Shown here in pieces: positions 9,274-35,203 of a stretch of 64,000 bases of DNA. Position 1 is the first letter of the stretch. The number at the start of each line of letters is the position of its first letter. The stretch comes from Saezia sanguinis. GTDB lineage: Bacteria > Pseudomonadota > Gammaproteobacteria > Burkholderiales > Burkholderiaceae_C. The translations under genes and the position numbers were made by a program. The notes beneath the pieces are model-generated. The model had not been told where the DNA came from, searched no databases, and saw only the letters and a program-made list of their open reading frames with translations. The stretch lies in NCBI RefSeq assembly GCF_003991585.1, contig NZ_PQSP01000002.1, positions 388,420-452,419 of the forward strand. Reading direction: 5' to 3'.

Positions 9274-11697
9274 ATGCCGACTTCAGTACAAGAGTTAGTT
9301 AATGATACTATTCCAGAACAAACAGTGTTAATTTTTGGGGCAGGGGCATCAATTCCATCAGGTTCCCCATCCGTTGCTATGCTCATAGAAAAGATCAGCA
9401 CAGAATTTGGTATTCCGCCTGATGGATTAACTTTGGCAGAAATATCTGGACTGGCTGAAAGAAAGCGAAATAGGAAAGAACTGATATCTCTCCTTAGAAA
9501 GGAGTTCAAAAATCTTCGCCCAAAGGGTTCAATCCTTAATTTGCCTCTTTACAATTGGAAAAGTATCTACTCAACAAATTACGATGAATTAGTTGAAGAC
9601 TCTTACAAAAGAGTTGGTAAAAGTCTTATATCATTTTCATCTAATTTTGACTTTACAATTCATGACGACCCAAACGCAACAAAGCTTTTCAAAATTCATG
9701 GAACTATAGCTAAAGACATATCTGATGGGAATGCATCGCGAATAATTTTAACTGACATGGATTATGATCAAACACAGGACTATCGGGAAGCTCTTTATCT
9801 ACGATTGGCGACAGACCTTACGTCAGGCCCGCAAGTTATTATAGTAGGGCAATCATTGGCTGATCCAGATCTTAAGGATATTGTCCAAAAAGCTATTGAG
9901 ACTAATCAGAAGGCAATGGCTGGAGGAAGAATCAGTCTCCTTCTTCACACACAAGATCTGAATCGGGCATTATTATTTGAAGCTCGTGGTTTACGCATTG
10001 CTTTCGGTGGGTTAGATGAATTTTTCGCAGCGTTGTCCTCCAAAGCTCCAGACTATTTAACTGCTCATATTGATACTGGTGACATACTTGATTCATTTCC
10101 ATCGTTGAGACCGGTTTCTTATGTTGTTGCAGACGAATTTGACGCATCTAAAGCAGATGTTAGTGCAATATTCAATGGGTGGCCAGCCAAGTTTGCAGAG
10201 CTTGCAGCTGGTTATACCTTTGATCGTACTATTGCTTCAGAGATTTTTGAATATCTGAAACAAGAAAACAAGGTTTGTGCGGTGCTATTAGGAGCGAGTG
10301 GCGTCGGGAAAACGACTGCTGCTCGCCAAGTTATAGTTAAACTAAAAGCAACCGGATTTTATACATGGGAACACAAAACTGATCATCCGCTCAATGTGAA
10401 TGAGTGGCTAGGTGTTGCGCAACGTCTCTCTTCTTCCCAAAAGTCTGGTGTGCTATTAATTGATGACGCTCATTCTCATCTACACCAAGTAAACGACTTA
10501 ATTGACAGGCTAGCGGCAAACAAACAGAATAGCTTAAAAATTATTTTAACTTCTACTCGCAACCATTGGGTCCCTCGTATAAAGTCTCCAAGTATCTATG
10601 CACTTGGCCAAGAATTTGGGTTATCCAAACTTACAAGTCAGGAAATCGATAGGCTTCTAACTTTAGTACAGTCGGCACCACTGCTTCGTAGTCTAGTTGA
10701 AGCTGGTTTTGGTGGTTTTTCTTTGCATGAACAAAGACGGCGACTAATTGATAGATGTGAAGCGGATATGTTTGTTTGCTTAAAAAACATTTTTGCATCA
10801 GAAAAGTTCGATGATATTATCCTCAGAGAATATGCAAGTTTGGACGAACGAGAACAGGAAGTGTATCGGTCAGTTGCTGCAATGGAATACGCTGGAATCA
10901 GAGTACATAGGCAACTTGTAATTCGTCTTTTAAGTATTCCTACAAACGAAATATCGCACCTTTTAGCGTGCCTAGACGAGATTATCAGCGAATATGAAGT
11001 TAACCGTGTCGAGGGCATTTATGGATGGAGGGTGCGGCACTATGTAATAGCAAGTATTATTGCAAAATATAAATTTTTTGAAACGGGAAAAATTATTGAT
11101 CTTTTCAATAAAGTAATTGATCAAATATCTCCAACGTATGACATTGAGATTAGAACAATTCGAGAGTTGTGCAATATCGAATCTGGACTGTCTGTTATCC
11201 CTGATAAACAGATCCAAAATACGCTTCTTCGCAAAATGATGTCCATCGCTCCTGGAGAACGAGTCCCCCGTCACCGCCTAATCCGAAATCTAATCGAGCT
11301 TGGAGAGTTTGAAAAAGCCGAATCCGAAATTCGAATATTTGAGAAAGATTTTAAACGTGACGGTCCAGTCATTCGATATCGAATCCTTTTGTCAATTGCT
11401 CGTGCAACTCATACAGCTGATCTCCTTCAGGAAGATCGAGTTGCAATATTGGAGCAAGCAAGAGAGTTGGCTGCAACTGCTAGCGTTCAATTCGAAAATA
11501 ACAAATCAGTGCTAGGAGCTTATTGCGAATTAGGTGTTGAGACATTTCGCCTTACCGGATCCCATATGGTTTATGATACTGCCTTAGATTTACTAAAGAA
11601 AGCAGAAGTACGTCTAGGGGATCCAGAGATTACCAAAATGATTATGCGCTATCAGCGACGAATTGCTGCGCATAATATTACAGATGAAGAGTCTTAG
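9274..11697 (+). CDS. SIR2-domain STAND NTPase with C-terminal helical/TPR-like sensor region (807 aa); Avs5-like antiphage candidate
   Basis: N-terminal SIR2-like Rossmann motifs: VLIFGAGASIPSG, IYSTNYDEL (TQNID-like) and FKIHGT (catalytic His). Central P-loop NTPase: Walker A LLGASGVGKTT, Walker B VLLIDDAH, then ILTSTRNHW. C-terminal ~350 aa is helical. The gene is AT-rich. GGAG lies upstream of the ATG. Confidence 0.7.
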   Translation: MPTSVQELVNDTIPEQTVLIFGAGASIPSGSPSVAMLIEKISTEFGIPPDGLTLAEISGLAERKRNRKELISLLRKEFKNLRPKGSILNLPLYNWKSIYSTNYDELVEDSYKRVGKSLISFSSNFDFTIHDDPNATKLFKIHGTIAKDISDGNASRIILTDMDYDQTQDYREALYLRLATDLTSGPQVIIVGQSLADPDLKDIVQKAIETNQKAMAGGRISLLLHTQDLNRALLFEARGLRIAFGGLDEFFAALSSKAPDYLTAHIDTGDILDSFPSLRPVSYVVADEFDASKADVSAIFNGWPAKFAELAAGYTFDRTIASEIFEYLKQENKVCAVLLGASGVGKTTAARQVIVKLKATGFYTWEHKTDHPLNVNEWLGVAQRLSSSQKSGVLLIDDAHSHLHQVNDLIDRLAANKQNSLKIILTSTRNHWVPRIKSPSIYALGQEFGLSKLTSQEIDRLLTLVQSAPLLRSLVEAGFGGFSLHEQRRRLIDRCEADMFVCLKNIFASEKFDDIILREYASLDEREQEVYRSVAAMEYAGIRVHRQLVIRLLSIPTNEISHLLACLDEIISEYEVNRVEGIYGWRVRHYVIASIIAKYKFFETGKIIDLFNKVIDQISPTYDIEIRTIRELCNIESGLSVIPDKQIQNTLLRKMMSIAPGERVPRHRLIRNLIELGEFEKAESEIRIFEKDFKRDGPVIRYRILLSIARATHTADLLQEDRVAILEQARELAATASVQFENNKSVLGAYCELGVETFRLTGSHMVYDTALDLLKKAEVRLGDPEITKMIMRYQRRIAAHNITDEES

Positions 11698-12098: not shown

Positions 12099-13817
12099 TC
12101 AGCTCGCCGCCGTGCTTGTGGCGACGACGAGATTCCAATGGTCTTTGAGGACGCCCACAAGGCGCTTCTGACGTTCGGCCAGAAGCGTGGGCGTCCACTC
12201 GTTCTCTGATCTGACTTCCTGCGTCAGCACGAAGGGCGACGCCTTGCCTTTGCCCTTGAAGTAGGCGTCCTTCTTCTTGGCAAAGTCGTAGTTGCTGGCA
12301 GACGAGTTCTTGTTCCTATCCAGCGGAACCAGATTGGCCAAACGGTGTGTCCAGCCATCGCGCTCGTCTTCATCCGGGAACCACTTGATCCAGTCCGAAC
12401 CGTCGGGCGGGGTTTGCGGCAGAACGTGCTCCAGAGACACGGCATCTTGAAGCTGCACGCCGGGGGCGCGCACCAAGGATTCAAGGCGTAAGACCAGCAC
12501 CATCCGTGCCTTGGGCAGATCGTCGTAAACGTCCCCATCGAGTGCCGCAACGAACTTGCCCTTTTGCGCGTCAGTCAGAACCAGCGTGGTGAGCGCAGCC
12601 AGATCCTCATTGAAGGTCTCCGGTTCGATTTCCTTGGTGAGCGCGGCGTAGGTTTCGATGCGCTCGTTGATGCCCACCTTGGTGACCAGCAGGAAATAGG
12701 TCAGGCGTTCCAGTGACTGGAAAAACTCTGCGAGCAATTTGGGCTGCTGCCGGAAGCGCTTGAAGTAAACCAGTGCCGGGGGCACCCAGTCCTTGAAGTC
12801 CACACGGTTGAGCCAAGACAGGTGCTCGTTGATCGTTTCGGCATGTTCGGTGGCCTCGAAGTCGGCATCGCGCACAAAGTCCCACACTTCAGCATAGGGT
12901 TTGATGACCTTGTCGACGAGGTCGATAGGGGTCTTGTACTCGGTGACGTGCTCCTGGAACTCCTTGACCAGGATGTACTTCTGCTTCTTCTTGGCGTAGA
13001 TGCTGCGGATGTGGCCAAACAGGTCACCGAAGGCGTCGCGTCCCAGTGAGCTTTCGATCCGGCTCCACTCTTTTGCGTAGGCGCGGCTTTTGACGTCGCC
13101 TGCCGTGGTGCGGATCAGGCCCAGCACCTGCGCCTTGATGATGTCGATAGGCGCGAGGTCGAGTCCCCGGTTGTTGAGTACGGAGAAGATGCGGTAGGCG
13201 GCTTCAAGGTCGGGCGTGGAGATGACAACCAGCGAGCAGTCGTTGGCGAGGAACTGCCACAGCGCAATGAGGTCGGCAGGCGGAAGCGCCTTGGCCTTTT
13301 CGAGCAGCAGCGTGGCGTTTTCACGGTAACGCAGACGGCTGTCTTTCAGCTTGTCCGTACTGGCGACCAACTGTGCGATGCCACCCGGCTCTTGAATATT
13401 GGTGCGGAAGAAGTCGGCATCTTCCTCGCGGGCGGTCAGGCGGTACTCGTTTTTCTCGCCAAGACTGACCTTGCCCTTCTTGTAGAGGAAGTCTGTGATG
13501 TCGTCTGCAGCATCCGGCATCACGATGCGCAACACGGCGAACAGCATCGTGAGCGTAGACAGGCGTTGCTGGCCGTCGACCACCGATGACTTAGGGTCCC
13601 GGTCGTTCTTGATCAGAACAATGCTGCCGAGGAAATATTGGCTGCTGGCCCCCGAGACACGCGCGTCCTGCATCGCCGAGTACAGATCATCGAACAGCTC
13701 TGTGGCCTGTTCGGTTGTCCAAGCGTAGGGGCGCTGGTAGTCCGGAATCTCGAACTGGTAGCTGCCTTCGAAGATCTCCCGGATCAGTTTGTCGTGGGCT
13801 TCAAGTGTCTTGGCCAT
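12099..13817 (-). CDS. DUF262 (ParB-like/GmrS N-terminal) plus DUF1524 (HNH-like/GmrD C-terminal) protein; GmrSD-family type IV restriction-like nuclease (572 aa)
   Basis: N-terminal FEIPDYQRPYAWTTEQATELFDD and VVDGQQRLSTL (the DGQQR motif of DUF262). C-terminal LEHVLPQ...RLANLVPLDRNKNSSASNYDF (His-Me/HNH-like DUF1524). The gene is GC-rich compared with neighbour 9274..11697. Confidence 0.75.
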   Translation of the reverse strand: MAKTLEAHDKLIREIFEGSYQFEIPDYQRPYAWTTEQATELFDDLYSAMQDARVSGASSQYFLGSIVLIKNDRDPKSSVVDGQQRLSTLTMLFAVLRIVMPDAADDITDFLYKKGKVSLGEKNEYRLTAREEDADFFRTNIQEPGGIAQLVASTDKLKDSRLRYRENATLLLEKAKALPPADLIALWQFLANDCSLVVISTPDLEAAYRIFSVLNNRGLDLAPIDIIKAQVLGLIRTTAGDVKSRAYAKEWSRIESSLGRDAFGDLFGHIRSIYAKKKQKYILVKEFQEHVTEYKTPIDLVDKVIKPYAEVWDFVRDADFEATEHAETINEHLSWLNRVDFKDWVPPALVYFKRFRQQPKLLAEFFQSLERLTYFLLVTKVGINERIETYAALTKEIEPETFNEDLAALTTLVLTDAQKGKFVAALDGDVYDDLPKARMVLVLRLESLVRAPGVQLQDAVSLEHVLPQTPPDGSDWIKWFPDEDERDGWTHRLANLVPLDRNKNSSASNYDFAKKKDAYFKGKGKASPFVLTQEVRSENEWTPTLLAERQKRLVGVLKDHWNLVVATSTAAS

Positions 13818-13854: not shown

Positions 13855-14772
13855 TCAACTCATCTTGGTTATTGTTTCGGGCTGAACTATTTCTATGACC
13901 TGGAACGTCTTGGATGTGCTTCCCGCAAGGTGAAGCACTACCTCGTCGCCTATGACAGCCCCGAGTATTGCCTGTGCCAGAGGGCGGCTTTCATTCACAA
14001 TCCCGTTGGCAAAGTTATCTTTACCTCTGGTGATCTGGACAGTCATTACGTCGTTAGGACGAGCAAGATCGATGTATCGAACTACGTCACCTACCTCGAT
14101 TTCGAGGTCATCTTCTGTGTCGATCAGTACAGAGCTAATCGCTTCTCGCTCCCTCTCAGCTTGAACAGCGTTCGCAACCGATTCAATTTGCTGAGTCACC
14201 CGGGCAGTGAGTTGTCCAGCACCTTGTCCTTCTTCGATCCAGGCGTCTCCTGATGTGTGCTCGGGCTTCCAGCTCTCGCGCAAATACTCAAGGAAGTTGA
14301 TGAGCTTCTCGGTTTCTTGTCGTGGAGTGCAGAACCAGTCCGTTGACCAGATGCGCCAAATGCGACCACACCAGCCAAGAGCTTCAAGGATCTCTTGACG
14401 GATGCGGTCACGATCGGGAACTGACAAAGCAGAGTGGTAGGTTGCTCCGTCGCATTCGATTGCTGCCAGATACGATCCTGGCGCGTCTGGATGCTTGACG
14501 GCGATGTCAATGCGGTATCCCGCCACACCGAGCTGAGGGGTGACTTCATAGCCACGCATCTTGAGCATGTCCATGACGGAGATCTCGAAATCACTGTCTG
14601 GTTCGCGGTCTGTTTCCTCGATGGTCGGCAACGAGCCTGTGCGGGCGTACTCGAGGTAATTGCGCAGCGCCTTGGTGCCGTCCGGAGTAGTGCCATCCAT
14701 CACGATGTCTTCGGGACGAAGAGATGTGTACAGGGCGATTGACTTCTTGGCGCGGGTGAACAGCACGTTCAT
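13855..14772 (-). pseudogene. 3' remnant of a large SF1 helicase - Vsr-like endonuclease - DUF3320 gene (HheA-like architecture). Only the last ~305 codons are present.
   Basis: Begins at helicase motif VI (NVLFTRAKKSIALYTSL, AAA_12 end) immediately after an in-frame TAA. It then has a Vsr/DUF559-like block (IDIAVKHPDAPGSYLAAIECDGATYHS...DRDRIRQEILEALGWCGRIWRIWSTDWF) and a C-terminal DUF3320-like tail. No upstream helicase N-terminus is present; the integrase remnant abuts instead. Confidence 0.6.
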
Positions 14773-14837: not shown

Positions 14838-15605
14838 TTAGTATGGGTCACAAAAGTCAGCCCACTCCTGCATCAGTAATCTGCGTTTTTGCAGCATATC
14901 ACCTCTTTGATAAGCCGCTTCAGCCTTATCTTTGAGTTTATGAGCCAAAGCATGCTCAATGACCTCTCTTGGATAGTGTGTTGTTTCCCCAGCCCAATCC
15001 CTGAAAGTTGACCTGAAGCCATGCATCGTAATACCCTGGTAATCCATTCGTTTAAGCACAGCAGTCAAAGACATATCCGATAAAGCCTTATTTGACCTTG
15101 GCGCAGGAAAAACAAAATCACATCCATCCAGTCGGGGGAGATGATTGAGAAGCCTCATTGCTTTGTCGCATAAAGGAATTCGGTGCTCTTTATCCATCTT
15201 CATACGCCTGGCAGGAATAATCCAAAGCTTTTCCTCAAAATCAATTTCACTCCATAATGCCCCACGGATTTCTCCAGAGCGCGCCACAGTCAAAATAGCA
15301 AATTCAACTGCACGGGCAGAAACACCTTCGCGTTGCTGCAAAAGCTTTATAAACTGTGGTATATCTCTATAATGTAATGCTTTGAAATGCTCAACCCGCT
15401 GAATTTTACTTCTGGCTGGCAACAGCTTATCCATGTGACCTTTCCAGCGCGCAGGGTTCTCGCCTGAGCGGTAATTGCGTGCTGCAGCCCAATCCAAAAT
15501 TAATTCAATACGGTTTCTAACCCGGGTAGCCGTCTCCGTTTTCTCTTGCCAGATAGGCTCCAAAATCTTGAGCAATAAAGGCGTATCTACTAAGTCAACA
15601 GGCAA
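14838..15605 (-). pseudogene. tyrosine recombinase/phage-type integrase, N-terminally truncated (catalytic domain only, TTG-initiated ORF)
   Basis: Catalytic-domain residues: R (TVARSGEIRG), HGFRSTFRDW and the Tyr in AEAAYQRGD. An in-frame stop lies only ~31 codons upstream of the called start. About 120 to 150 aa of the arm-binding/core-binding N-terminus expected for P4-type integrases is therefore missing. Confidence 0.6.
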
Positions 15606-20167: not shown

Positions 20168-20193
20168 AACATTTCCTATATACGGAGGAAGAC

Positions 20194-21328: not shown

Positions 21329-21402
21329 TGGAGCGGGTGAAGGGAATCGAACCCTCGTCTAAAGCTTGGGAAGCTGCCGTTCTACCATTGAACTACACCC
21401 GC
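21329..21402 (-). tRNA. tRNA-Gly (anticodon CCC)
   Basis: Reverse complement reads GCGGGTGTAGTTCAATGGTAGAACGGCAGCTTCCCAAGCTTTAGACGAGGGTTCGATTCCCTTCACCCGCTCCA. This is near-identical in shape to E. coli glyU, with the anticodon loop UUCCCAA, a 7-bp acceptor stem and an encoded CCA. Confidence 0.85.
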
Positions 21403-21526: not shown

Positions 21527-24500
21527 TCAGGCCAGGCGTTCCAAAATAGCATCTATTGCCACCTGCCGGTCCACAGTCCAGATGCCGTAACTCAATGGCA
21601 GCATTTCGAGGCCGGCACGGGCAAGTATCTGGTAGCGTTCTACGCCCAGGTAATCTTCTCCAGGGCCGGGGTAACCAATCAAGTCAATGGCCAGCATACG
21701 TTCGTCTTTCTGGCAAATCAGGTCAACGATCTGGCCTGCAATAAAAAAGTTTTTCCAGATGCAAATGCCATGAACCTCCAATGCATTGCAGACCTGCTGT
21801 TGGAATTCTGTATGTGGAGTGGCGTCAGGTTGCTGCAAAGCATAACCGGACTGAATGCTTTCCAGATACAGTCTCAACAGGTTATCTGGCGGCAGTGTAT
21901 TTTCATCGCCACTGAAAAGAACGATCTGCTGCTCGCGTGCACGTGTTACGGTCACATTAAACACATCAGGCCGGTTGAGGTAGTAGCTGGCACGCCGGCT
22001 TTCATTGTCCAGCGTAAAGCTCAGAATCATCAGGTCGCGTTCTTCTCCCTGGAAGCCATAGGGGGTGCCGACCAGAATTTTAAAGGCCAGAATGTTGTCT
22101 GCACTGATTTCGCGCATGAGATGCTGGCGGATTGCATCTACCTGGGCGCGAAATGGCGACAGGATGCCGATGCTGGGTTTGGTATCGGCATTCTGATAAG
22201 TATGGATATGTGCCTGTATCAGTTCAAGAGTGCGCTCTACTTCTGCCTGATTGACATTGGTGGATGAGCGTGCGCCTTCTATACGTTCCAGAATCAACGC
22301 GGGCGGTTTTTCTGCCATGCTTTCAGGCGATACCGGCCTTTCTTTCATGACCTTAATGCGGTTATTGTAGAAATGCCGGTTGCTGAATGCAATGAGTTCA
22401 GGGCGGGAGCGAAAGTGCTCATCCAGAAACGTGATGGCGTTGCTGTCTTTGATTTGTGCGTTCACCAGGTCCAGCAGGCTGTTATCACGGTAGCTCCATT
22501 TTTCAAATGTATCTGCAGGCAGGCCGGTTTGTTGAAAAGTGTGTTGTTCCAGTTGACGAGACAAAAATGAAATGTGCCGCAGTTGCTGATAGTCGCCAGT
22601 GACTACAGCACGTTTGCAGCGGAAAAAAGCAGGCAGTGCCGTGGCAATATCGCACTGTGTGGCTTCATCGACGATCAGCAGATCAAACAAATTAGGATGC
22701 AAGGGGAGTACCCGATGCAGGTCGTTGAAAGTCATGATCCATACAGGCAGTGCTTTAAGCATCAGGTGCCACTCTACATGTCCAATTCTCCAGTTTTTGT
22801 AGTCTGTTTCATTGAGTGATTCATCGTATCTCAGAAATTCTTCTCTATGCTCGTTCAGCAGTTTTTGCAGGGTGTCGTGGCGTTTAATGTTCAGGTAGTT
22901 TCGGCTGAGTATTTCACGCTGTTTTTGGCATGCAATCAGTTGGTCCAAAATCTGCCAGTGCTTGGTGCTGCTGCTGATTTTGCGGCGGACAAATGACATT
23001 TGCAATGTCCTTTTCCACCATGGGAGTTTTTTCTGTTCATTGGCAACAATCAGCTGACTTGTATGCAAAGCCAGCGTTCCTTTTTCGGTAAAAGCTTTGC
23101 GCAGGTTCAGCTCTTTTTGGGCACATTTTTTTAATTCATTTTCCACGGATCGGGTGGATGGTGCGGCTGTATTCGGTTCGGGGGCAGACAAATCTATTCT
23201 GGTAAAGAAGTTCAGCTTGTCTTTCAGGGCTGGAACCAGCGTTTTGTTGTAGCCGAAGTTCATGACGCCTTCTGCCAGACCCATGTCAGTGCACAGTTTA
23301 TCGGCAATTACGTTGGCAGCCTGTTCTGAGCCAGTCACAATCAGTACAGTTTCATCGTTGAGTATGCGATCCAGAGCCATGGCCGCAAGGGTATAGCTTT
23401 TGCCGGTTCCGGGTGGGCCGTTAATGATGCTTAAAGGGTATTGAATAGCGTTGTTTAAAGCATTGGCCTGTGCCTGGCTTAATAAAGCGGGTAAGGCATG
23501 AGGTCTGCTTTGTAGAATGGTGGGTGCAGGCGTTGGAAATAGCTGCTCGTTATGATGTTGAATGGAAAAAAGGAGATTCTCTCTATTCTGAACCTCACCC
23601 TTATTACTTGGTTTCTGATGTAGGCTCAGCAATGAGTTGATATATATTTGTTCAAGGAGATAGAGTCTTCTTGATAACAAGCGCCGGGCAATTTTTTGTG
23701 CAATCGGGAATAGTTCCGGTGCATTGGGGTGTTTTTCCTGACATGACACAAAGTATTCATAAAGCTGACGCAATGTGTAAGATGAATCATCAAAATAATA
23801 AGCAGGCATGCCCAGCAGGTTGTAGATTGCGTTGGAAAAACCCGCCTGTTTTGGCAGTTCATTGAGTTCATGCCGGATATTTTGGCTGATGCTTTTTTGT
23901 TTGACGTAGAACAACATGCCGCAGGAATATATTTTCAGATGGTTTTCCTGATCAGGGTTGTCTAAATGTCGTTGTTGGAGATTGGGCTCAAGAGCAGGGA
24001 AGCTGGCCGTGTGAATCACATACCTGATGGCAATGCCTGTTCTGATGGCAATGCCTGTTGCTTTGCGACGTAGGGCTTTTTTTTTGGACTTTCTGGAAAT
24101 TTTGGGGGCTGGTTCAGGCGTGACGGAAGCTGTAACTGTGCCGCCTGAGGTCAGGCCAAACACATGGTCAACATGGTTGGAGGACGTAAAGTAACAATAA
24201 GTTTTAAGCCATTCAGACAATTTTTCCAAATAGCTTCGGGTAATGCCTTCTGCGGGCGTGAGCGTTGGTGCTGTGCTGAGAACAGATGCATCATACTGTT
24301 CACGCAATATTCTTTTTAAAAGGCCTTTGTTGAGCACAGGCATGTGTGCATCAATACTCAAGGTATAAATATCTGTAACGTTATTGTGACCAACAATTGC
24401 TTCATAATAAATCAAAGGGCCTGCAACCCAATAAGGTTCGATTTGATTGCGGTATTGGTTGTATAGCTGTGTCTTTTTCTTTTCGTCACCGTTGGCCTGT

Positions 24501-24880
24501 TGTATCCAGGCCGGTGCGACATATCTGCCTTCGGCGTCACGAAAGCCGTGGATTAAATGTAACAACTCGAGTACCCGCGCATGAGGCGGATAGCCGCAGA
24601 TATAAAACAGGCCGTAGATTAGCTGAGTTTCATGGGCATATAAAGACATTTGGAGACAAAAAGATTTTCCTGTCTCCGTATCCAGCTCAACTGTGGGTGT
24701 AATGCACCTAGCTAATTGTTCTTGCCCTGAAAAAAAGTGAAATTCCTGAGGCTTGGTTTTATCCTGAAAATAGTTGTTCCCGGATTCATTGAGGACTTGG
24801 TCAAGCCTGAGTTCACGGTTTTCTATCTGATAACAGGTACGGTAAAACTGTGTAATGCGTTGGATAAATTCAGTGGGCAT
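21527..24880 (-). CDS. SF1 (Upf1/DNA2-like AAA_11/AAA_12) helicase with a C-terminal Vsr/DUF559-like endonuclease domain and an uncharacterised ~450-aa N-terminus (1117 aa)
   Basis: Walker A INGPPGTGKSYTLAAMA. Helicase motif VI NVTVTRAREQQIVLFS. C-terminal HTEFQQQVCNALEVHGICIWKNFFIAGQIVDLICQ...LAIDLIGYPG matches the Vsr-like fold. Confidence 0.75.
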   Translation of the reverse strand: MPTEFIQRITQFYRTCYQIENRELRLDQVLNESGNNYFQDKTKPQEFHFFSGQEQLARCITPTVELDTETGKSFCLQMSLYAHETQLIYGLFYICGYPPHARVLELLHLIHGFRDAEGRYVAPAWIQQANGDEKKKTQLYNQYRNQIEPYWVAGPLIYYEAIVGHNNVTDIYTLSIDAHMPVLNKGLLKRILREQYDASVLSTAPTLTPAEGITRSYLEKLSEWLKTYCYFTSSNHVDHVFGLTSGGTVTASVTPEPAPKISRKSKKKALRRKATGIAIRTGIAIRYVIHTASFPALEPNLQQRHLDNPDQENHLKIYSCGMLFYVKQKSISQNIRHELNELPKQAGFSNAIYNLLGMPAYYFDDSSYTLRQLYEYFVSCQEKHPNAPELFPIAQKIARRLLSRRLYLLEQIYINSLLSLHQKPSNKGEVQNRENLLFSIQHHNEQLFPTPAPTILQSRPHALPALLSQAQANALNNAIQYPLSIINGPPGTGKSYTLAAMALDRILNDETVLIVTGSEQAANVIADKLCTDMGLAEGVMNFGYNKTLVPALKDKLNFFTRIDLSAPEPNTAAPSTRSVENELKKCAQKELNLRKAFTEKGTLALHTSQLIVANEQKKLPWWKRTLQMSFVRRKISSSTKHWQILDQLIACQKQREILSRNYLNIKRHDTLQKLLNEHREEFLRYDESLNETDYKNWRIGHVEWHLMLKALPVWIMTFNDLHRVLPLHPNLFDLLIVDEATQCDIATALPAFFRCKRAVVTGDYQQLRHISFLSRQLEQHTFQQTGLPADTFEKWSYRDNSLLDLVNAQIKDSNAITFLDEHFRSRPELIAFSNRHFYNNRIKVMKERPVSPESMAEKPPALILERIEGARSSTNVNQAEVERTLELIQAHIHTYQNADTKPSIGILSPFRAQVDAIRQHLMREISADNILAFKILVGTPYGFQGEERDLMILSFTLDNESRRASYYLNRPDVFNVTVTRAREQQIVLFSGDENTLPPDNLLRLYLESIQSGYALQQPDATPHTEFQQQVCNALEVHGICIWKNFFIAGQIVDLICQKDERMLAIDLIGYPGPGEDYLGVERYQILARAGLEMLPLSYGIWTVDRQVAIDAILERLA
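24024..24059. repeat. perfect in-frame 18-bp tandem duplication (ctgatggcaatgcctgtt x2) inside the helicase-nuclease CDS
   Basis: Read directly. On the coding strand it duplicates the hexapeptide TGIAIR (…KATGIAIRTGIAIRYV…). Confidence 0.85.
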
Positions 24881-24925: not shown

Positions 24926-25486
24926 TTAGGCGCGTTTTTTTCGGTAAATCCAGGCTGTCAGTGTGCCACAGATTACTCCGGCCAGATGGTATTCGATGGA
25001 TACGCCTTCTTTGGGAAGTAGCCCCAGCCATAGCCCGCCGTACAACAGCAATACGATCAGACCGATGACGATGTTGGCGATATTGCGTTGAAAAAAAGCG
25101 CGCGCAATCAACCATGCCCATAAACCAAACAGCCAGCCACTGGCGCCGGCATGGATGCTGTTGCGGCCAAATATCCAGACCAGCAGACCACTGCCCAGGA
25201 TAATCCATACGCTGGCGTGTATAAAGCGTTTGGGTGAGTCCCACATGGCCAGCAGGCTGAAAAGCAGCAGGACCGGCAGGTTGGACCACAGATGCATCCA
25301 GCTGTTATGCAGCCAGGGCGAAAGGATAATACCGGGCAGGCCGCTGAGGTGCCTGGGCCAAAGGCCAAAATCACGTGCCAATATGCCGCCCATGGTGGCA
25401 TTGATGGCTTGCAGCACAATCATCAGTGCCGCTATGGTGAAAAGTATCAGCAGCCGTTTTTCCCACTGGGCTTTACTTGCGGTCAT
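24926..25486 (-). CDS. rhomboid-family intramembrane serine protease (186 aa)
   Basis: Six TM helices, GxSG catalytic motif IHAGASGWLFGL and catalytic His in EYHLAGVICG. The start overlaps the 3' end of the upstream giant gene by 14 nt. Confidence 0.8.
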   Translation of the reverse strand: MTASKAQWEKRLLILFTIAALMIVLQAINATMGGILARDFGLWPRHLSGLPGIILSPWLHNSWMHLWSNLPVLLLFSLLAMWDSPKRFIHASVWIILGSGLLVWIFGRNSIHAGASGWLFGLWAWLIARAFFQRNIANIVIGLIVLLLYGGLWLGLLPKEGVSIEYHLAGVICGTLTAWIYRKKRA

Positions 25487-28400
25487 AGTAATCGCTGGTG
25501 TCGCTGTCTTTCATGGTTTCGATCACCTGTGTGTGTCCCATGAGTGTTGCCAGTTTACGTAAACCATTGGTCAGGTTCACAATGTTTTTCTGTGAGCGCA
25601 GATCTACTTCCAGCTTTTTATCCATCAGCTTCATGACAGGAATAAAGCTCTTCTCCAGTGTGCTTGCCATACCTTGCAGAATTTCGGCCACGCCGGGCTG
25701 GGGCTGGGTCGAAAGGTTCACCGACACATTGGGCGGGGCAGGAGGCTGCTCGAGTTTTTCGAGCTGATCAAAAATCTGCTGCCATGGAATTTGCAGGGGC
25801 GGTGTATCCGGCTTGTTTTCAACAAACTGGGCAAAGCCCTGGAATTCATTGACTAGGTCATTCAACTGAGCCACAACCCGCATGCCGGTATCGGCATCGT
25901 CACCACCCATGGCCTTGATCCGCAGGAAGTCCTGCCTGATCTGCTCCCAGCGTTGCTGTTGTTCTTCGGTCATGCGACCGCGCAGTTCAGAGAGTTTCAG
26001 CAGGTTTTCTTCAGCGCCGGTGGTGAGCAACTGGGCTTCGCCCTGGTAGTGGTCGTTAATGACCTGGGCAATTTCGCCTTCGTTCATGATGGCAGAGATT
26101 TTTTCTGCCATTTTGTTCATGTTGCGGTAGCTGCCCTGCAGTCTGAATGGCGGCTCTGTGCGGTATTTATCGGCCTGTGCAGCGCTGGCAATGTATTGCT
26201 GGTTGACTTTGAGCACCACTTCGCGAATGGTGAACATGCGTTGCAGGGTGCCGACAATTTCATTGATTTCTGCTGCACTGTAGCTGTAGCTGAACTCGTT
26301 GTTGGAAATTTCTTTGCCATCGGCCTTGTCAACAAAGCGGTACACATCGGCCATGTCACGGGTTGCCAAAGGTGCCAGCACGGCATTGGATGTGAGCGAG
26401 TTTTCAATATAGCTCAGTGCAAATGCCTCTTGCATGCCGCCCAGTGTTTCACCCAGGTTATAAATATCGGCACGGTTGGCGAGCATGTCCGGTATTTTGA
26501 ACACTTCGCCTGATTCTGTATAAGGGTTGCCGGCCATGACAACGCAGAACCGGCGCGCGCGCATGTCGTAGGTTTTGGTACGGCCTTTCCATACGCCTTC
26601 GATGCGGCGGGTGCCGTCACACAGTGAAATGAATTTTTGTAAAAACTCCGCATTGGTGTGCTGTATGTCATCGACATACAGCATGACGTTGTTGCCCATT
26701 TCAAGCGCCAGGTTGAGCTTTTCGAGCTCCTGGCGTGATGTGGCGTCAGGTGCCTGGGCCGGGTCCAGTGAGTGAACACGGTGGCCCAATGACGGGCCGT
26801 TGATTTTCATGAAAATCAGCCCCAGCCGGTGCGCCACGTATTCCATCAGCGTGGTTTTGCCATAGCCGGGCGGGGAGATTAGCATCAGCAGGCCCATCAG
26901 GTCAGAGCGTTTGCTCTCCCCGACCGTTCCCATCTGCTTGGCGAGGTTGTCGCCGATAACAGGCAGGTAGACGTCATTGATCAGGCGGTTGCGGACAAAA
27001 GATGTCAGTGGCCTGGGTTTAAACTCCTCCAGCCGCAATGATTCGCGTTCCTGGGCAATGATGTTTTGCCGCAGCAACTGATAGCGGTTCAGTGCCGGCA
27101 GGAATACTTCTGTGTGCTGGCGTACCCGTGCAAAAAAATCATCCACGGATAAATGCATCTGCTGGTTTTCAATGCGCGGGTGTGTACCCATCAGGTCTTT
27201 GACGGTAAAGCGCAGATCCGTTTCGGTAAAGCGCAGCGGGAAGTCTTCGGTCAGCAAAAATAAAACGATGGCTTCCGGAATGTAGCCGGCAATGGCATTC
27301 AGGTTTTGGCTTTCATCAGCCTGACATAAGCCTTGCAGCGCGTTTTCAACCTGCCCCCATTGGGCGTCAGGTCGTTCTCCCAGGCGTTGCAGTGCTTGGC
27401 GGAAGTCATCCCACATGCGCTCGCCCTGCAGGCGCAGTTGCAGGGCGTCCTGCAGTTGTTTGCCGTATTTGCTGAAGGTAAATTCCACACGGTCGGCTGC
27501 CAGAGCCTGCACCAGGTAATCAGCCGCTTCATGTGCGACGGACTGGTCGTAAGAAAGGCCGGTTTTGTCAAACCAGTCCTGTATGGACTGTGCAATTTCC
27601 TGCCGCAACGCAGTGATGCCCTGCGCACGGCCAAACAATAGTTGAATGGATTTGCTGGCGCGTGCGCGTTCTATCCACAAAGCGCTGGCTTCTTCATTGG
27701 CGCGGGTATATTGCCAGAACAGACCGGCCAATGCCCGTGGCAATGGCGAGTAGCGCAGCAACCCGGCACTTTCGGCCAAGGGTAGCAACTGCAAAAGGAG
27801 CAGGGTTGCGTCATGGTCGTGAATGCCTTTTTCGTAGCCTTCTTTGTAACGCGGCGTGGCAAAGTCGCGCACGGTTTTGCCCAGCACATCGGGTTGTGCC
27901 AGCTGGGTTTTGAGCAGGTTCAGTGACAAACCTTCCTGCTGCTGGCTGGCTGCTTTCAGAATTTGCGCCGCCAGATATTCACCGCGGTAAAGCTGCGGGG
28001 TTTCCGATTCGATCGATATTTGCCAGTAATCCCGCAGGTTTTCAAGCTCTGGATTGTTCAGCGGTTCAAAATAGTCGGTACCGGTCAGGTGGATGCATAA
28101 ATGGTTGTCACGCGGCAGCAGGGTCAGGTCCAGCTCCTGCGTATTGACGCTGAAGCGGTGCCTGGGGCCCAGTTTAATGACATTGCCGCCATCTTCAAAC
28201 AGTTCGGTTTTGTCGCGCAATGAGCGCAATGCCTGATCGCGTGCGCTTTTTAAGCGGGCTTCGACGTCATCGGCACGCACACTGTCATGCAGTTCACGCA
28301 GACGGGATACCAGTTCGCGCAGTTTTAAAATCAGAGGATCCGATGCAAAGAATGCATTCATTTCTTCCGGTTTGTTCAGGCGCGCGGTGCGGCGTGGCAA

Positions 28401-30863
28401 TGTATCGAGAATACGGCGGGCGGCATCCTGCACGTTTTGTGCTTTACGCTGACGCTCGTCCAGCAGAGACTGTTTGTGAGACTCAAATGTCTCAAGCACT
28501 TCTTCGCGTTTGGCGAGAATGTCTCCCAGAAATTCTTCATGATCACCGAACTGGCCTTCCAGTTCTTCAAGCTGTACCAGCAGGCGCGATAACTGGTCAT
28601 CGCATTTTTCAGGGTCTTGTGAGAGCGCCAGGGCGTTGACAATGCTCTGGCTGAAAAGGCTGAACTGGGCACCAAACTGCGCTACGGTTTCCGCCGAACC
28701 CAGGCCTTTACGGCGTTGTTCCGCGCGTGCTTTGCTTTGGTTGAGCTTGGCATATACCTCGGAGATGGCCTCGATGATGTGTGTGCGCTGCGTTGCATCT
28801 TCAATCTGGAGTGTGCCCATCAGGCTGGTGAGCATATCCAGGTCATTGGCCATGCTTTGCATGGCTGCCATCGGGATTGACAAGGCGTTGACGGTTTTAG
28901 CCTTCTGTGCCTGTGCGTCCAGTTCCTGCAACTGCGTGGTGAAAGGCAGCAGCGCCGTATCACTGGCTAAAAAGGTGGCGGTGGCTGCTGCCGTGCGCTC
29001 CTGTGCGGCCAGCAGATCGGTTTCCATCTGGTCGATGACAGCGGTATCTATATAGCGGTAGTCACGTATGGTCAGCAGCAGGCCACGCTGAGCGGTAATG
29101 TCGTTCAACGCACCCACATACTGCTGAACGTTGTCCCATCCTTCGGGCAGCAGCAGGTTCAGCAGGTTTTTCTGCTTAGCCTGCGCATCAGCCAGTGCCT
29201 GCGCTGACTGGCTGCGAATGCTTTCAACTTTTTCATATTCGTCCAGCACCATTTCAGCGGTGGCGGTGATTTCGCGCAACAGTGCTGGCAGTTGCTTAAG
29301 CTGCGCATCGCCCAGCCAGTGATAGGCGTCAAACAGGCGGCGTACATGCTGGCACAGCATGGAGTAACGTTGCACAGAGACGGAAGGGGAGGCAATTTCA
29401 CGGCAGAGTTCGTAAAAGTCAGAAATACCACGAACCAGTTCTGCATTACCTACCCGGCCAAAGAAACCGTTACGGGCCGGCTGGCGTGCAGCGTACTCTT
29501 CAGAGTAAAACGGCGTTTGCCAGATTTGCATCGGGTGGATACGTGTCGGTTCATTGCCTTCAGAGTGGAAAATGACCATGCGGCCGTCTTCCAGCCTGGC
29601 ATAACCGTGTCCCAGAACCGGCGGCTCCAGTTGGCGGCTGATGACGTCGTAGGTGAGCAGAACGGAATTGCCTACTTCCGGGTCGTAAAAAATGTACAGC
29701 ACATCTTCGCCGTTGGGCGAGCGTACAGTGCGTTTGAAGCGCATGCCCAACATGGGGATGTCAAACGTTTTGAATTCGCCGTTTTGCAGATAGTACCCAC
29801 CCGGAAAGATAATGCCATGGTCTTCCGGCAGTTGAATACACGCCAGCCCCAGCGCATCTACGCGTGCGATTTTCTGATTCAGCTTGTTGTAAATGTAATG
29901 GCGCCATTGCTGCTCACGGTAGGGCAGGATTTTAAGCAGCAGCAAAGAGCCCAGTTCGGCAAATTCAACCCGCAGGTCGCCAAGCGCCTGGTTTTCGTCT
30001 TCTACTTTTTCCGTGAAGATAATCTGCCCATCGGGGGTGTTGTTTTCAATTTTGAAGGTGAGTGTGCCGCGCCGTTGTTCAATGAACAGGGTGTTGGCAA
30101 TGTTCATATACAGCCTTCGGGCTGTATCGATGATCATCTCGCGCGTGGTGTGAAGCCATTCAAAATCATAAGGGGCGGGCAGCGCAATATCGCGGTCGCC
30201 CCGGTTATCAATGTACTGAATTTGGCTGCTGTCGCCATTGGCAGGCAGTGCCCAGCGGAATACGCGGATATCGGTGTAGCGCTCGCCGATCTGGAAACTG
30301 GCCAGCAGCTTGTTGTCCCGTACCATCAACTGCAGCAGCTTGGTGTCTTTGTAATAAGTGTAAAGTTCGTTGAAGTCTGCAATGAAGCGTGGATGGGTCA
30401 GAAAGCTGCCTTCAGCCGGGCAGGCCTCTACATCGTAGCCTTCTTCTGTTTCTACCAGGCGATACAGGGAGAATACGTCGGAGATGGCGGTTTCTTTTTT
30501 CAGCCCGATAAATACGTTGTAACCAAACAGCAGAAAATCACCAACGCGGACAATGTCGCGTGCGATGCAGTTGTTTTCGGTGCGGATGCGTACCCGTCCG
30601 ATGACTTCCATGTGGCTGTCGCCAAACTCTTTGAGGCGATGCTCATTGAGTTTTTGCGTGATGTCCTTGAGCCGCAGCCCCTGGTCCTGCAGGCGCCGGT
30701 TAAGTACTTCGTAAGCGCCGCCTTCGGCGACGGCTTTATCCACCATATCCTGAGCATCTGGAGTTTCAGCTGGCATGTCTGTCATGTCGATATTCCTGCA
30801 AGTGAGCTCTTCATACCGGTAGAACAAATGCCGCTTGACTGCAAGCGGCCTGATGAAAGGCAA
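25473..30863 (-). CDS. giant (~1770-1796 aa) uncharacterised protein with a C-terminal MoxR/AAA_5-like ATPase module and a long coiled-coil-rich N-terminal region
   Basis: Walker A LISPPGYGKTTLMEYVA, Walker B NNVMLYVDDIQH, sensor VVMAGNPYTE and Arg-finger region LANRADIYNLGE near aa 1290-1500. Upstream are ~1200 aa of helical/coiled-coil sequence with no recognisable family. The likely true start is ATG at 30785, preceded by AGGAA; the ORF-track start is TTG at 30863. Confidence 0.7.
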   Translation of the reverse strand: MPFIRPLAVKRHLFYRYEELTCRNIDMTDMPAETPDAQDMVDKAVAEGGAYEVLNRRLQDQGLRLKDITQKLNEHRLKEFGDSHMEVIGRVRIRTENNCIARDIVRVGDFLLFGYNVFIGLKKETAISDVFSLYRLVETEEGYDVEACPAEGSFLTHPRFIADFNELYTYYKDTKLLQLMVRDNKLLASFQIGERYTDIRVFRWALPANGDSSQIQYIDNRGDRDIALPAPYDFEWLHTTREMIIDTARRLYMNIANTLFIEQRRGTLTFKIENNTPDGQIIFTEKVEDENQALGDLRVEFAELGSLLLLKILPYREQQWRHYIYNKLNQKIARVDALGLACIQLPEDHGIIFPGGYYLQNGEFKTFDIPMLGMRFKRTVRSPNGEDVLYIFYDPEVGNSVLLTYDVISRQLEPPVLGHGYARLEDGRMVIFHSEGNEPTRIHPMQIWQTPFYSEEYAARQPARNGFFGRVGNAELVRGISDFYELCREIASPSVSVQRYSMLCQHVRRLFDAYHWLGDAQLKQLPALLREITATAEMVLDEYEKVESIRSQSAQALADAQAKQKNLLNLLLPEGWDNVQQYVGALNDITAQRGLLLTIRDYRYIDTAVIDQMETDLLAAQERTAAATATFLASDTALLPFTTQLQELDAQAQKAKTVNALSIPMAAMQSMANDLDMLTSLMGTLQIEDATQRTHIIEAISEVYAKLNQSKARAEQRRKGLGSAETVAQFGAQFSLFSQSIVNALALSQDPEKCDDQLSRLLVQLEELEGQFGDHEEFLGDILAKREEVLETFESHKQSLLDERQRKAQNVQDAARRILDTLPRRTARLNKPEEMNAFFASDPLILKLRELVSRLRELHDSVRADDVEARLKSARDQALRSLRDKTELFEDGGNVIKLGPRHRFSVNTQELDLTLLPRDNHLCIHLTGTDYFEPLNNPELENLRDYWQISIESETPQLYRGEYLAAQILKAASQQQEGLSLNLLKTQLAQPDVLGKTVRDFATPRYKEGYEKGIHDHDATLLLLQLLPLAESAGLLRYSPLPRALAGLFWQYTRANEEASALWIERARASKSIQLLFGRAQGITALRQEIAQSIQDWFDKTGLSYDQSVAHEAADYLVQALAADRVEFTFSKYGKQLQDALQLRLQGERMWDDFRQALQRLGERPDAQWGQVENALQGLCQADESQNLNAIAGYIPEAIVLFLLTEDFPLRFTETDLRFTVKDLMGTHPRIENQQMHLSVDDFFARVRQHTEVFLPALNRYQLLRQNIIAQERESLRLEEFKPRPLTSFVRNRLINDVYLPVIGDNLAKQMGTVGESKRSDLMGLLMLISPPGYGKTTLMEYVAHRLGLIFMKINGPSLGHRVHSLDPAQAPDATSRQELEKLNLALEMGNNVMLYVDDIQHTNAEFLQKFISLCDGTRRIEGVWKGRTKTYDMRARRFCVVMAGNPYTESGEVFKIPDMLANRADIYNLGETLGGMQEAFALSYIENSLTSNAVLAPLATRDMADVYRFVDKADGKEISNNEFSYSYSAAEINEIVGTLQRMFTIREVVLKVNQQYIASAAQADKYRTEPPFRLQGSYRNMNKMAEKISAIMNEGEIAQVINDHYQGEAQLLTTGAEENLLKLSELRGRMTEEQQQRWEQIRQDFLRIKAMGGDDADTGMRVVAQLNDLVNEFQGFAQFVENKPDTPPLQIPWQQIFDQLEKLEQPPAPPNVSVNLSTQPQPGVAEILQGMASTLEKSFIPVMKLMDKKLEVDLRSQKNIVNLTNGLRKLATLMGHTQVIETMKDSDTSDYYDRK

Positions 30864-33862: not shown

Positions 33863-34558
33863 TTATGAATCGGCCTTTTCCTTCAAGCGGGCCAATACGT
33901 TGGCAGCGCTGTGTTCTTCAGGAATAATGCCCGCAGTGCGCAGCTTGTTTTCCAGCAGCGTGTCCTGATCTTCCTGGGCAGCCAGCTCGTTGCTTGCGTC
34001 GATTTTTGCTGCACGCTCAGCCTGTCTTTTCTTGATGCGCTCCAGCGATTCCAGTGCCGTGTGCATTTTGGCCTGCGAGCCGCCATAACGTTGAGAAACC
34101 GCCATCTGTGCTTTTTGTACGTTTTCGGTTGCCCGTACGGTATCAGCCTGCTGCTTCACACGTTTGATGTGCGTTTCTATTTGAGAGACAGCGCGGCGCA
34201 GTTGCTCAACGCTGCGGGCATAGCCGCCAGCCTGCGTCTGGGATTCTGAGAGTCCGATTTCCAGATTGGCGATTTTCCCAGCAACCTCTTTGGCCAGCTC
34301 TTCATTGTTGGCTTCCAGCGCTTTCAGGGCATACTGCTCGTATTCGGCGATTTTGTCCTCAATTTTTTTGACATCGGCATCGGCCAGCTTCTGCTTGGCC
34401 ATGATTTCCGCCAGTGCTTCCTTGGAACGGCGCAGTTCCTCGTCTGCATCACGAATTTCCTGATCCAGGATGCGCAGTGCCTGGCTGTCAACGATGGATT
34501 CACCCATTTCGTGGGCTCCGCCGCGTAACGCCGTGATCATTTTGCTCCAGATACTCAT
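33863..34558 (-). CDS. PspA/IM30 (phage-shock protein A / Vipp1 / YjfJ) family protein (231 aa)
   Basis: MSIWSKMITALRGGAHEMGESIVDSQALRILDQEIRDADEELRRSKEALAEIMA is the typical PspA N-terminal amphipathic helix. The protein is coiled-coil throughout. Confidence 0.8.
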   Translation of the reverse strand: MSIWSKMITALRGGAHEMGESIVDSQALRILDQEIRDADEELRRSKEALAEIMAKQKLADADVKKIEDKIAEYEQYALKALEANNEELAKEVAGKIANLEIGLSESQTQAGGYARSVEQLRRAVSQIETHIKRVKQQADTVRATENVQKAQMAVSQRYGGSQAKMHTALESLERIKKRQAERAAKIDASNELAAQEDQDTLLENKLRTAGIIPEEHSAANVLARLKEKADS

Positions 34559-34579: not shown

Positions 34580-35203
34580 TCAGACGCTCTCTTTAAGATG
34601 GTCTTGGTAGGCTTCAGTGGCCTTGATGATATTGTCAGCCAGCACTTCAATTTCCAGCACCACGTTTTCCAGTTTGGAAGTCGCGCTCAAGGCGCCAAAC
34701 ATGGTGTAGTAACTGGGACCTTCTGGCGGTGTTTCCAATGCAATGCTCGACAGGGGAAACAGTTTGTGCGTGCGCAAAATGGCGTCGTTAAATTTAACAA
34801 CGTCTTTGACATCGTCCGTAGACCACAGGGTGCCTTCAATGACAATCTGATCACCCGAGACCGCAACAAACAAGGGTAACTCGCCATAATCATGCATCTC
34901 AATGTGCAGACTCGAATCCGCTCCTTGCAGCAACTCTACGGCAGCACGCCCTTCTGCGAACAGGGGGGTGGTTGCCAAAGCCGCATATAGCGAATTTGCA
35001 GTCCAGACCTGAGGTGTTGTATTCATCCCATTCTCCTTTTCTGTGAGCACTGCCCCAGATTGAGGCAAGCGTAATTGACGCTCAATATGGCTCAGTGCCT
35101 TCGCATGCTCCGGCAATATCCATATCTCCTTTTTTACCAAACCTTGCTCACGCAGGCGTTGTCTGTAAAGGCGCTGGTAGTAGGCAGAAGATTTGCTTTT
35201 CAT
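34580..35203 (-). CDS. YjfI-like (DUF2170-type) protein; first gene of the PspA-flotillin operon
   Basis: It lies directly upstream of the PspA paralogue, as yjfI-yjfJ do in E. coli. An internal ATG at 35026 (MNTTPQVW…) is preceded by a strong AAAAGGAGAATGGG Shine-Dalgarno and would give a 149-aa product of DUF2170-like size. The first 59 codons may be an extension or a leader. Confidence 0.45.
   Translation of the reverse strand: MKSKSSAYYQRLYRQRLREQGLVKKEIWILPEHAKALSHIERQLRLPQSGAVLTEKENGMNTTPQVWTANSLYAALATTPLFAEGRAAVELLQGADSSLHIEMHDYGELPLFVAVSGDQIVIEGTLWSTDDVKDVVKFNDAILRTHKLFPLSSIALETPPEGPSYYTMFGALSATSKLENVVLEIEVLADNIIKATEAYQDHLKESV

Follow-up and report, generated by a model that had tools for sequence, protein, structure and literature searches.

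A helicase with a nuclease-fold tail at the end of a bac/PspA-type operon in Saezia sanguinis

In a 64,000-nucleotide stretch of the Saezia sanguinis genome (contig NZ_PQSP01000002.1, positions 388,420 to 452,419; hereafter, the window), one minus-strand gene encodes a helicase with a nuclease-fold tail, followed downstream by a tRNA-Gly. Our preferred reading, to which we give a probability of roughly 0.45, is that the product is an ATP-driven, Upf1-like helicase of a distinct chromosomal family, that its gene is the last cistron of a bacABCDE-rhomboid operon, and that it serves as the nucleic-acid-processing arm of an envelope-stress system. The original prediction, made from the letters of the window, had placed the protein among the Hhe-type single-gene defence proteins; its domain order is indeed that of the Hhe class, but it carries no DUF3320, scores far below the cut-offs of the defence models and is encoded by the terminal gene of a bac operon. 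Coordinates of the gene, its domains and its neighbours are collected in Table 1.

A compact helicase family with a reduced nuclease site

The gene is confirmed as genuine and complete: it starts with ATG, its frame runs unbroken over 3.35 kb in two independent assemblies, and its orthologue in loci L004/L005, 97% identical to the window helicase, has the same neighbours. As originally predicted, the protein contains an Upf1/DNA2-like core of superfamily 1 (SF1), in which Pfam recognises AAA_11 at residues 468-768 (60.8 bits) and AAA_12 at residues 804-988 (88.1 bits). RecA domain 1 of this core holds a long coiled insertion, and all SF1 motifs are intact: beside the Walker A motif GPPGTGKS these are DEATQ (738-742), GDYQQL (762-767), FQGEERD (943-949) and NVTVTRA (975-981). 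The profile and structure matches are very strong and are not due to chance.

For the C-terminal domain, the earlier assignment of a very-short-patch-repair (Vsr)-like fold is correct. The Pfam family REase_MTES_1575 reaches a sub-threshold 17-21 bits on the window protein (cut-off 38.2) and is matched by 69 of the 77 sequences in our alignment of relatives, which includes the window protein; the only other recurrent matches are NERD and RAP. A fold search likewise supports the assignment, the nearest folds being the Vsr, DUF559 and I-Bth0305I endonucleases (PDB 1cw0, 3hrl and 3r3p) and RAP domains. A search of PDB sequences with a hidden Markov model profile of the domain returned only spurious matches to de-novo TIM barrels.

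The active site of this domain differs from that of its canonical counterparts. Hhe-like domains, including that of a Hhe remnant elsewhere in the window, carry the motifs sFE..V / rIDl / aIEcDG..yH / LERlGW, where the helicase family has F(Q/x)..V / vDL / AIDLIGyPG / l.RAGl. Aligned with these domains, the 'PD' aspartate Asp1053 on strand 2 falls on the invariant Asp of canonical MTES_1575 domains, Asp1066 takes the place of the Glu in the canonical AIECDG..H motif, and the next Asp and the His are lost. An alignment against the Vsr catalytic residues, which had been proposed as a check, therefore gives a divided answer, in that helix Glu, second Asp and His are missing while Asp1053, Asp1066 (for Glu) and Arg1088 are retained. 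Together with W1101, residues D1053, D1066 and R1088 are 99-100% conserved in the 77 sequences, R1088 and W1101 being invariant, and since D1053, D1066 and R1088 are kept across several phyla, the site evidently matters. Judged from sequence, the carboxylates of D1053 and D1066 could still hold one metal ion.

The N-terminus, originally described as ~450 aa (amino acids) of no assigned family, has no Pfam match over ~460 aa in the window protein. Aligned with 76 relatives, it resolves into a conserved ~250-aa, probably DUF4011-like domain and ~210 aa of lineage-specific insertions, located at residues 32-41, 103-146, 236-289 and 363-456 and common only to the 97% relative. DUF4011 (PF13195) is the sole Pfam family that recurs in the conserved domain, with matches in 17 of the 76 relatives, all of them sub-threshold (best E 2.3e-4), and a profile of the domain matches regions of DUF4011-bearing Hhe-like proteins, the best match (E=1e-9) being to P0054 in a small database of 156 sequences. 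One basic insertion, predicted to be disordered, contains a tandem 18-nt duplication that yields two copies of TGIAIR in the window protein, where the 97% relative P0001 has one. A fusion of the helicase with the PLD-family gene that accompanies it in some other genomes (see below), and is missing here, was considered and rejected: the protein aligns from residue 1 with its ~900-aa relatives, and its extra length consists of internal insertions without a PLD signature.

Sequence searches delineated a family of uniform proteins of ~890-1100 aa, mostly of 900-930 aa. One metagenome-derived relative is 97% identical to the window protein, followed by about ten clusters of Pseudomonas sensu lato (~49%), marine Gammaproteobacteria (36-40%), and members from Bacteroidota, Verrucomicrobiota, Planctomycetota, Acidobacteriota, Myxococcota and Spirochaetota (31-37%). 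Searched exhaustively with HMMER against 1.84 billion representatives, the N-domain profile retrieved 649 clusters at 50% identity (472 of them at E<=1e-10), and in all of the best 150 of these 649 clusters the domain is N-terminal, or nearly so, in proteins of ~900 aa or in fragments of such proteins. Members carry generic names only, such as "DEAD/DEAH box helicase" or "AAA domain-containing protein".

Curated models for known systems reach the window protein far below their cut-offs: NCBIfam ProA scores 109 bits (cut-off 1500), PLuB helicase 100 bits (cut-off 999) and Hhe (NF042953) 74.8 bits (cut-off 2000). In PADLOC, MkoC (169 bits), MkoA (95 bits) and Hhe (62 bits) match the helicase core only, and PDC-S37 (123 bits) the core and part of the C-terminal region. 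The Hhe models cover window residues 731-956/960 only (profile positions 1281-1496 and 1380-1599, the PADLOC profile having 1911 positions), so that the PADLOC model suggested as a check does find the core but gives no whole-protein match. DUF3320 (PF11784) has no match in the window helicase, which terminates with the nuclease fold at residue 1117. The window helicase thus lies outside Hhe, ProA and Mokosh, in a distinct chromosomal family of ~900-aa proteins.

Compared with its orthologue in L004, the helicase gene shows 35 synonymous and 22 non-synonymous differences, a ratio of non-synonymous to synonymous rates (dN/dS) of 0.18, alongside 0.09 for the rhomboid gene next to it and 0.015 for the C-terminus of BacE; the ratio is well below 1 in the insertions too, where counts are small. 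GC content at third codon positions (GC3) equals that of the nearby ada and ogt genes and is close to that of BacC and BacD, in a neighbourhood that spans 0.49-0.65. The gene is constrained, and nothing here points clearly to its having been imported recently.

The bac/PspA operon in the window and in other genomes

The helicase gene is, as first noted, the last of its array, a same-strand run from 35203 to 21527 with gaps of 21, 104, 55, 107, -14 and 45 nt. After bacA the run encodes proteins of PspA/ESCRT-III-like and flotillin-like type, a giant AAA+ protein, a rhomboid and, last, the helicase. The rhomboid gene overlaps the BacE stop by 14 nt and lies 45 nt upstream of the helicase, and loci of Ectopseudomonas, Kangiellaceae, Endozoicomonas and Budvicia have a rhomboid in the same position. 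Consensus scans found no promoter-like or terminator-like site in the 45-nt gap between rhomboid and helicase, and the helicase would probably be transcribed with the genes ahead of it. In P. aeruginosa, bacA-F are co-transcribed (PMC10948618), and a sigma-54 promoter has been proposed for bacA of this bacABCDEF operon (PMC2587700, PMC10948618). In contrast, the 300 nt upstream of bacA in the window contain no sigma-54 GG-N10-GC motif. An AT-rich region of 740 nt (35204-35945) separates bacA from a divergent cyoABC operon.

Ravi et al. described a CesT/Tir-PspA operon that also encodes a flotillin protein, a novel AAA+ ATPase and a 3TM protein, joined "in some Proteobacteria" by a PLD hydrolase (PMC11237479). 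The main text of that study and that of the 2024 BacA paper (PMC10948618) mention neither a helicase nor a rhomboid. The helicase is not orthologous to any of the six named Bac proteins and is an extra, facultative member of the operon.

To place the family in its genomic context, the 80 species-level loci fetched for it were searched with the window operon proteins by tblastn and iterated profiles. In 11 of the 80, bac genes lie within 10 kb of the helicase, in at least five lineages and at least five arrangements, where chance would give fewer than one by a rough estimate that takes a ~30-kb target in a 4-5-Mb genome. Six Pseudomonas/Ectopseudomonas species have the order BacC-BacD-BacE-rhomboid-PLD-helicase, with the PLD stop overlapping the helicase start, as seen for the Ectopseudomonas PLD gene at L011:9279-9968. 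Motilimonas has BacCDE-PLD-helicase; in a Kangiellaceae metagenome-assembled genome the helicase is followed by three genes and then by PspA-rhomboid-BacCDE; Endozoicomonas has helicase-rhomboid, and Cryomorpha (Bacteroidota) PLD-helicase. In two Microbulbifer species a DUF2170-PspA pair (L020:13640-14736, L040:14978-16074) lies 1-3 kb downstream of the helicase; the genes that follow it are not BacC-E homologues and the operon is therefore probably of a different type, a hint that what the helicase is linked to may be the PspA pair as such.

In eight loci, Cryomorpha included, the gene ahead of the helicase is an HKD/PLD gene of 226-229 aa, and PLD (PLDc_2) is the most frequent Pfam family among the helicase's neighbours (7-8 of 148 flanking open reading frames, ORFs); these PLD neighbours match the MkoC, DrmC and MkoB models weakly. 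Homologues of BacE far outnumber the helicase family, with 1833 matches at E<=1e-20. Bac loci without the helicase end in a single-HKD PLD (L086:12639-13217, in a 6.5-Mb genome; L087:11405-12094, in P. protegens) or, at L088, in rhomboid-PLD (PLD at L088:12609-13292). Because a PLDc_2 protein is the sixth gene product in L086 and L087, and a PLD gene closes the operon in L088 too, BacF is by position taken to be a PLD-family protein of ~190-230 aa. The helicase fills the slot where related operons carry a PLD-family BacF, alone or as PLD plus helicase. Attachment of helicase and PLD to PspA-type operons is recurrent, and we did not find it described in the literature searched.

Where the helicase stands alone, its neighbours are response regulators, patatin-Omp85 proteins, MFS transporters, amylases and, by sequence inspection, hydrolase-like proteins. 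Six species of the Phytopseudomonas/P. fulva group share one common site, with flp pilin and response-regulator genes on one side and patatin-Omp85 on the other; tad secretion genes are also present at L001, the one Pfam-annotated locus of this group. A divergent BacE among the large upstream genes of Colwellia-type and Cytophagales loci was considered and rejected, as none matched the iterated BacE profile; by inspection these genes seem to encode TPR/peptidase-like and other unrelated proteins.

Table 1. Features of the window, with positions counted from its first letter
Feature	Position	Strand	Evidence or remark
Helicase with nuclease-fold tail, whole gene, 1117 aa	21527..24880	-	ORF list and translation; stop codon 21527-21529
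N-terminal region, residues 1-462	23495..24880	-	DUF4011-like domain plus insertions
Tandem duplication TGIAIR-TGIAIR, residues 275-286	24023..24058	-	18-nt unit
SF1 (Upf1/DNA2-like) helicase core, residues 463-995	21896..23494	-	Pfam AAA_11/AAA_12; motifs I-VI intact
Walker A / motif I GPPGTGKS, residues 488-495	23396..23419	-	invariant in 77 family members
C-terminal Vsr/DUF559/MTES_1575-fold domain, residues 996-1117	21530..21895	-	
Asp1053 codon	21722..21724	-	100% conserved in 77 sequences
Asp1066 codon, in AIDLIGYPG	21683..21685	-	99% conserved in 77 sequences
Rhomboid-family membrane protease gene	24926..25486	-	Pfam Rhomboid 65.8 bits; GASG serine and His motifs intact
BacE-type giant protein, 1796 aa, DUF3686 + DUF7902 + AAA+	25473..30863	-	Pfam DUF3686 608 bits; 67-68% identical to Ectopseudomonas orthologues
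BacD-type protein, 686 aa	30971..33031	-	no Pfam match; 69-72% identical to same-position gene in Ectopseudomonas loci
BacC-type protein, 223 aa	33087..33758	-	no Pfam match
BacB, PspA/IM30 family	33863..34558	-	Pfam PspA_IM30 175.6 bits
BacA (DUF2170, CesT/Tir-like), first operon gene	34580..35203	-	NCBIfam 'biofilm formation regulator BacA' 318 bits, cut-off 300; Pfam DUF2170
tRNA-Gly(CCC)	21329..21402	-	ARAGORN; single tRNA in window; 124 nt downstream of helicase stop
SIR2 + STAND-NTPase protein	9274..11697	+	islet
GmrSD	12099..13817	-	islet
3' remnant of canonical Hhe/PDC-S37-type gene	13855..14772	-	Hhe 175.9 bits, model positions 1621-1784 of 1911; MTES_1575 116.9 bits
N-truncated tyrosine integrase	14838..15605	-	islet

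Mobility, the tRNA-Gly and a nearby defence islet

A tblastn search of 72,556 plasmid records yielded a single full-length member of the family, carried by an 859-kb Persicobacter replicon, and a search of 50,697 phage records yielded no full-length member; relatives of Hhe/DUF3320 type, for their part, are present on plasmids. Among 281 flanking ORFs within two genes of the helicase, few had strong matches to defence models (MADS in two loci, Dpd-like helicases, PDC-S02 and OLD-type ATPases), and we estimate that defence genes are neighbours at roughly 5-10% of loci, about background, within this narrow span of two genes on either side. The original prediction was to count as refuted should orthologues prove to sit in conserved housekeeping contexts unrelated to mobile DNA or defence; what we find goes part of the way in that direction, with stable chromosomal sites, near-absence from plasmids and phages and few defence neighbours.

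The minus-strand tRNA-Gly, whose 5' end faces the helicase, had been placed 125 bp beyond the helicase stop, in close agreement with the distance measured here. It neighbours the helicase in L004 and in none of nine other family loci scanned; it is a lineage-specific neighbour and not part of the helicase system. A search for att-like repeats of the tRNA-Gly 3' end, also suggested at the outset, found none in the window, and the notion that the helicase or its operon forms a tRNA-Gly island was rejected on that ground. Just beyond the tRNA-Gly, on the opposite strand, lie an ada-alkA fusion and ogt, both alkylation-repair genes (18704-20733); they are conserved in L004 and do not stand beside the helicase in other family loci.

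Further along, the window holds a defence islet (8700-15636) of mosaic base composition, with gene GC of 0.40-0.59. Next to it, a giant ORF of 2689 aa (595-8664; GC 0.58, GC3 0.70) abuts the low-GC islet. The islet's Hhe remnant had been read as the 3' end of a second helicase-Vsr-DUF3320 gene; it is a genuine Hhe/PDC-S37-type 3' fragment, but DUF3320 has no match in it at E<=1e-3. To speak of two members of one class in the window was an overstatement, the remnant being canonical Hhe-type and the helicase coming from a different family. Five core genes separate the islet from the helicase, the stretch between them holding GH3, HD, ada-alkA, ogt and tRNA-Gly, and the whole islet is absent from the 96%-identical contig L004, which keeps the helicase. 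Synteny with L004 breaks at window position 15636, 67 nt before a tRNA-Ser(CGA) of L004 that the window lacks; the islet therefore sits at a tRNA-Ser site and not at the tRNA-Gly. The Hhe remnant and the islet are unrelated to the helicase gene.

Interpretation and comparison with known systems

Under the reading we prefer, envelope stress, for instance through phage infection, would lead to the helicase being made together with the PspA system. The N-domain would load it onto nucleic acid, ATP hydrolysis would drive translocation or unwinding, and the C-domain would bind or cut the substrate via a two-Asp metal site, such that the helicase would act as the clearance or effector arm of a stress response and not as a free-standing mobile defence gene. 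The P. aeruginosa genes PA3728-PA3732 (bac genes) are among only 17 host genes upregulated in every sample infected with phage JG005, phage JG024 or both (PMC12041424), and a gene added to such an operon would therefore be made when the envelope is stressed or the cell infected.

Several observations weigh against this proposal. In about 65 of the 80 loci the helicase stands alone among unrelated genes, and as most family members are not linked to bac genes, the role of the helicase cannot depend strictly on the bac system; its closest free-standing orthologues are the family members at the common Phytopseudomonas/P. fulva-group site. A PLD profile built from the partner genes in orthologous loci detects no PLD ORF in the 64-kb window, no clear Shine-Dalgarno sequence precedes the helicase ATG, and at a GC3 of 0.50 the helicase gene falls below BacE and the rhomboid (0.63-0.65). 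With the canonical helix Glu, second Asp and His absent, the nuclease site may be inactive. The neighbour maps themselves derive from a crude longest-ORF gene call.

Alternatively, the protein might be a free-standing anti-phage protein of Hhe or Mokosh type, in which the helicase would sense phage DNA or RNA intermediates, the Vsr-fold domain would degrade nucleic acid or abort infection, and adjacency to bac genes would be incidental or a matter of promoter supply. We regard this as rather unlikely. Its Hhe-like domain order, the defence helicases that head its PADLOC matches, a PLD partner that overlaps the helicase start in several loci and so recalls type I Mokosh, the few loci that abut MADS, Dpd-like, PDC-S02 or OLD-type ATPase genes, and the stand-alone state of most members all speak for it; yet the model matches fall on the generic core (PDC-S37 also on part of the C-terminal region) far below curated cut-offs, the window shows neither DUF3320 nor a kinase domain nor a PLD, and the catalytic constellation is reduced. 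Moreover, the family has next to no members on plasmids or in phages, its defence neighbours are at about background and its positions are conserved within genera, and the defence islet lies five core genes away and is missing from the 97% relative that retains the helicase. Another unlikely alternative is a housekeeping or accessory Dna2/Upf1-like helicase for repair or RNA surveillance, tied neither to defence nor to PspA, whose neighbourhoods would reflect chance or shared regulation. Such a role would suit a chromosomal, single-copy gene of uniform architecture in Gammaproteobacteria, Bacteroidota, Verrucomicrobiota, Planctomycetota and Acidobacteriota, with stable positions within genera, purifying selection and, in the window, repair genes nearby. 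It accords less well with the sparseness of the family in the sequence space searched and with linkage to PspA/bac and PLD genes in at least five lineages and in varied arrangement, which is hard to ascribe to chance; the ada and ogt genes lie on the opposite strand, and their adjacency is not seen at other loci.

Two further possibilities concern what the operon, or the window copy, might do. The bac operon could be a membrane-triggered immune system in which the helicase, together with the PLD-type BacF in operons that have it, would destroy incoming or replicating nucleic acid: once an infecting phage perturbs the envelope, the complex would be induced or activated at the membrane and nucleic acid would come under attack by the helicase-nuclease, much as membrane-anchored Zucchini (PLD) is paired with Armitage (an Upf1-like helicase) in the piRNA pathway. 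We consider this stronger claim improbable. Least probable of all is that the window gene is a decaying or neo-functionalised copy left after PLD loss and the ~210 aa of insertions, its C-domain a catalytically dead nucleic-acid-binding module. The PLD gene, which shows translational coupling with the helicase in the closest orthologues that are bac-linked, is indeed absent here; the large insertions are specific to the lineage, and one of them, basic and predicted to be disordered, holds a 6-aa duplication that is polymorphic; the nuclease site has lost the canonical Glu, the second Asp and the His; and dN/dS exceeds that of BacE and the rhomboid. Against decay, the 3.35-kb frame is intact in both assemblies, all helicase motifs and family-invariant residues are kept, dN/dS is well below 1, and reduction of the active site is common to the family as a whole and not peculiar to the window copy.

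In P. aeruginosa, bac/PspA-flotillin-AAA+ operons influence both biofilm formation and virulence, and phage infection induces them. That such operons end in a nuclease-type gene, be it PLD, PLD plus helicase or helicase alone, provides a testable lead towards a nucleic-acid-directed output. The sizeable unnamed family delineated here, of ~650 clusters at 50% identity, is separated from Hhe and Mokosh, which architecture-based annotation would conflate with it, and a "helicase + Vsr fold" architecture by itself does not justify a defence call.

Among known systems, Hhe (PADLOC PDLC02194, NCBIfam NF042953) combines DUF4011, an SF1 helicase, a Vsr-like MTES_1575 domain and DUF3320. The window family shares with it the three-module order of a putatively DUF4011-like N-domain, AAA_11/AAA_12 and MTES_1575/Vsr fold, and its domain profiles detect the matching regions of Hhe-like proteins. 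In contrast to Hhe (~1600-1900 aa), however, it is half the size (~900-1117 aa) and without DUF3320, its active site is reduced from E/D/E-x-D/H to D/D, and it is chromosomal, linked to PspA operons and scored far below the model cut-offs. Mokosh comprises the helicase MkoA with the PLD nuclease MkoB in type I and the fusion MkoC in type II; the likeness lies in the Upf1-like, COG1112-type core, for which MkoC is the best PADLOC match, and, for type I, in the small PLD gene immediately upstream of the helicase in orthologous loci. Type I Mokosh is defined as a two-gene system whose MkoA includes a Ser/Thr kinase (bioRxiv 10.1101/2022.05.11.491447). Unlike it, the window protein shows no Ser/Thr kinase among its Pfam matches and the window no PLD gene or domain; the protein has a Vsr-fold C-domain of its own, which Mokosh proteins are not described as having, and the N-terminal regions of MkoA and MkoC are unmatched.

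The upstream genes are orthologues of bacA-E of the P. aeruginosa bacABCDEF operon (PMC10948618; PMC11237479), and the helicase takes the place of BacF at the operon's 3' end. The two operons differ in that BacF, judged by position, is a PLD protein and not a helicase, and in that the window has no sigma-54 motif upstream of bacA. Stand-alone Vsr enzymes of ~150 aa use a catalytic Asp plus His, whereas in the window family the domain is fused to a helicase and lacks the His residues of the Vsr/DUF559 site as well as the site's other acidic residues. In orthologous loci of the window family, an Upf1-like helicase is paired with a small single-HKD PLD protein and associated with a membrane-bound system; the likeness to the eukaryotic Upf1 and Armitage-MOV10L1 helicases with Zucchini (MitoPLD) would be an analogy between generic helicase and PLD folds. 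On its sequence, the family is best described as a compact Hhe relative without DUF3320 and with a reduced nuclease site. The helicase-plus-Vsr-fold architecture was already known; newly drawn here is a compact family, set apart from Hhe and Mokosh, with a reduced yet invariant two-Asp site.

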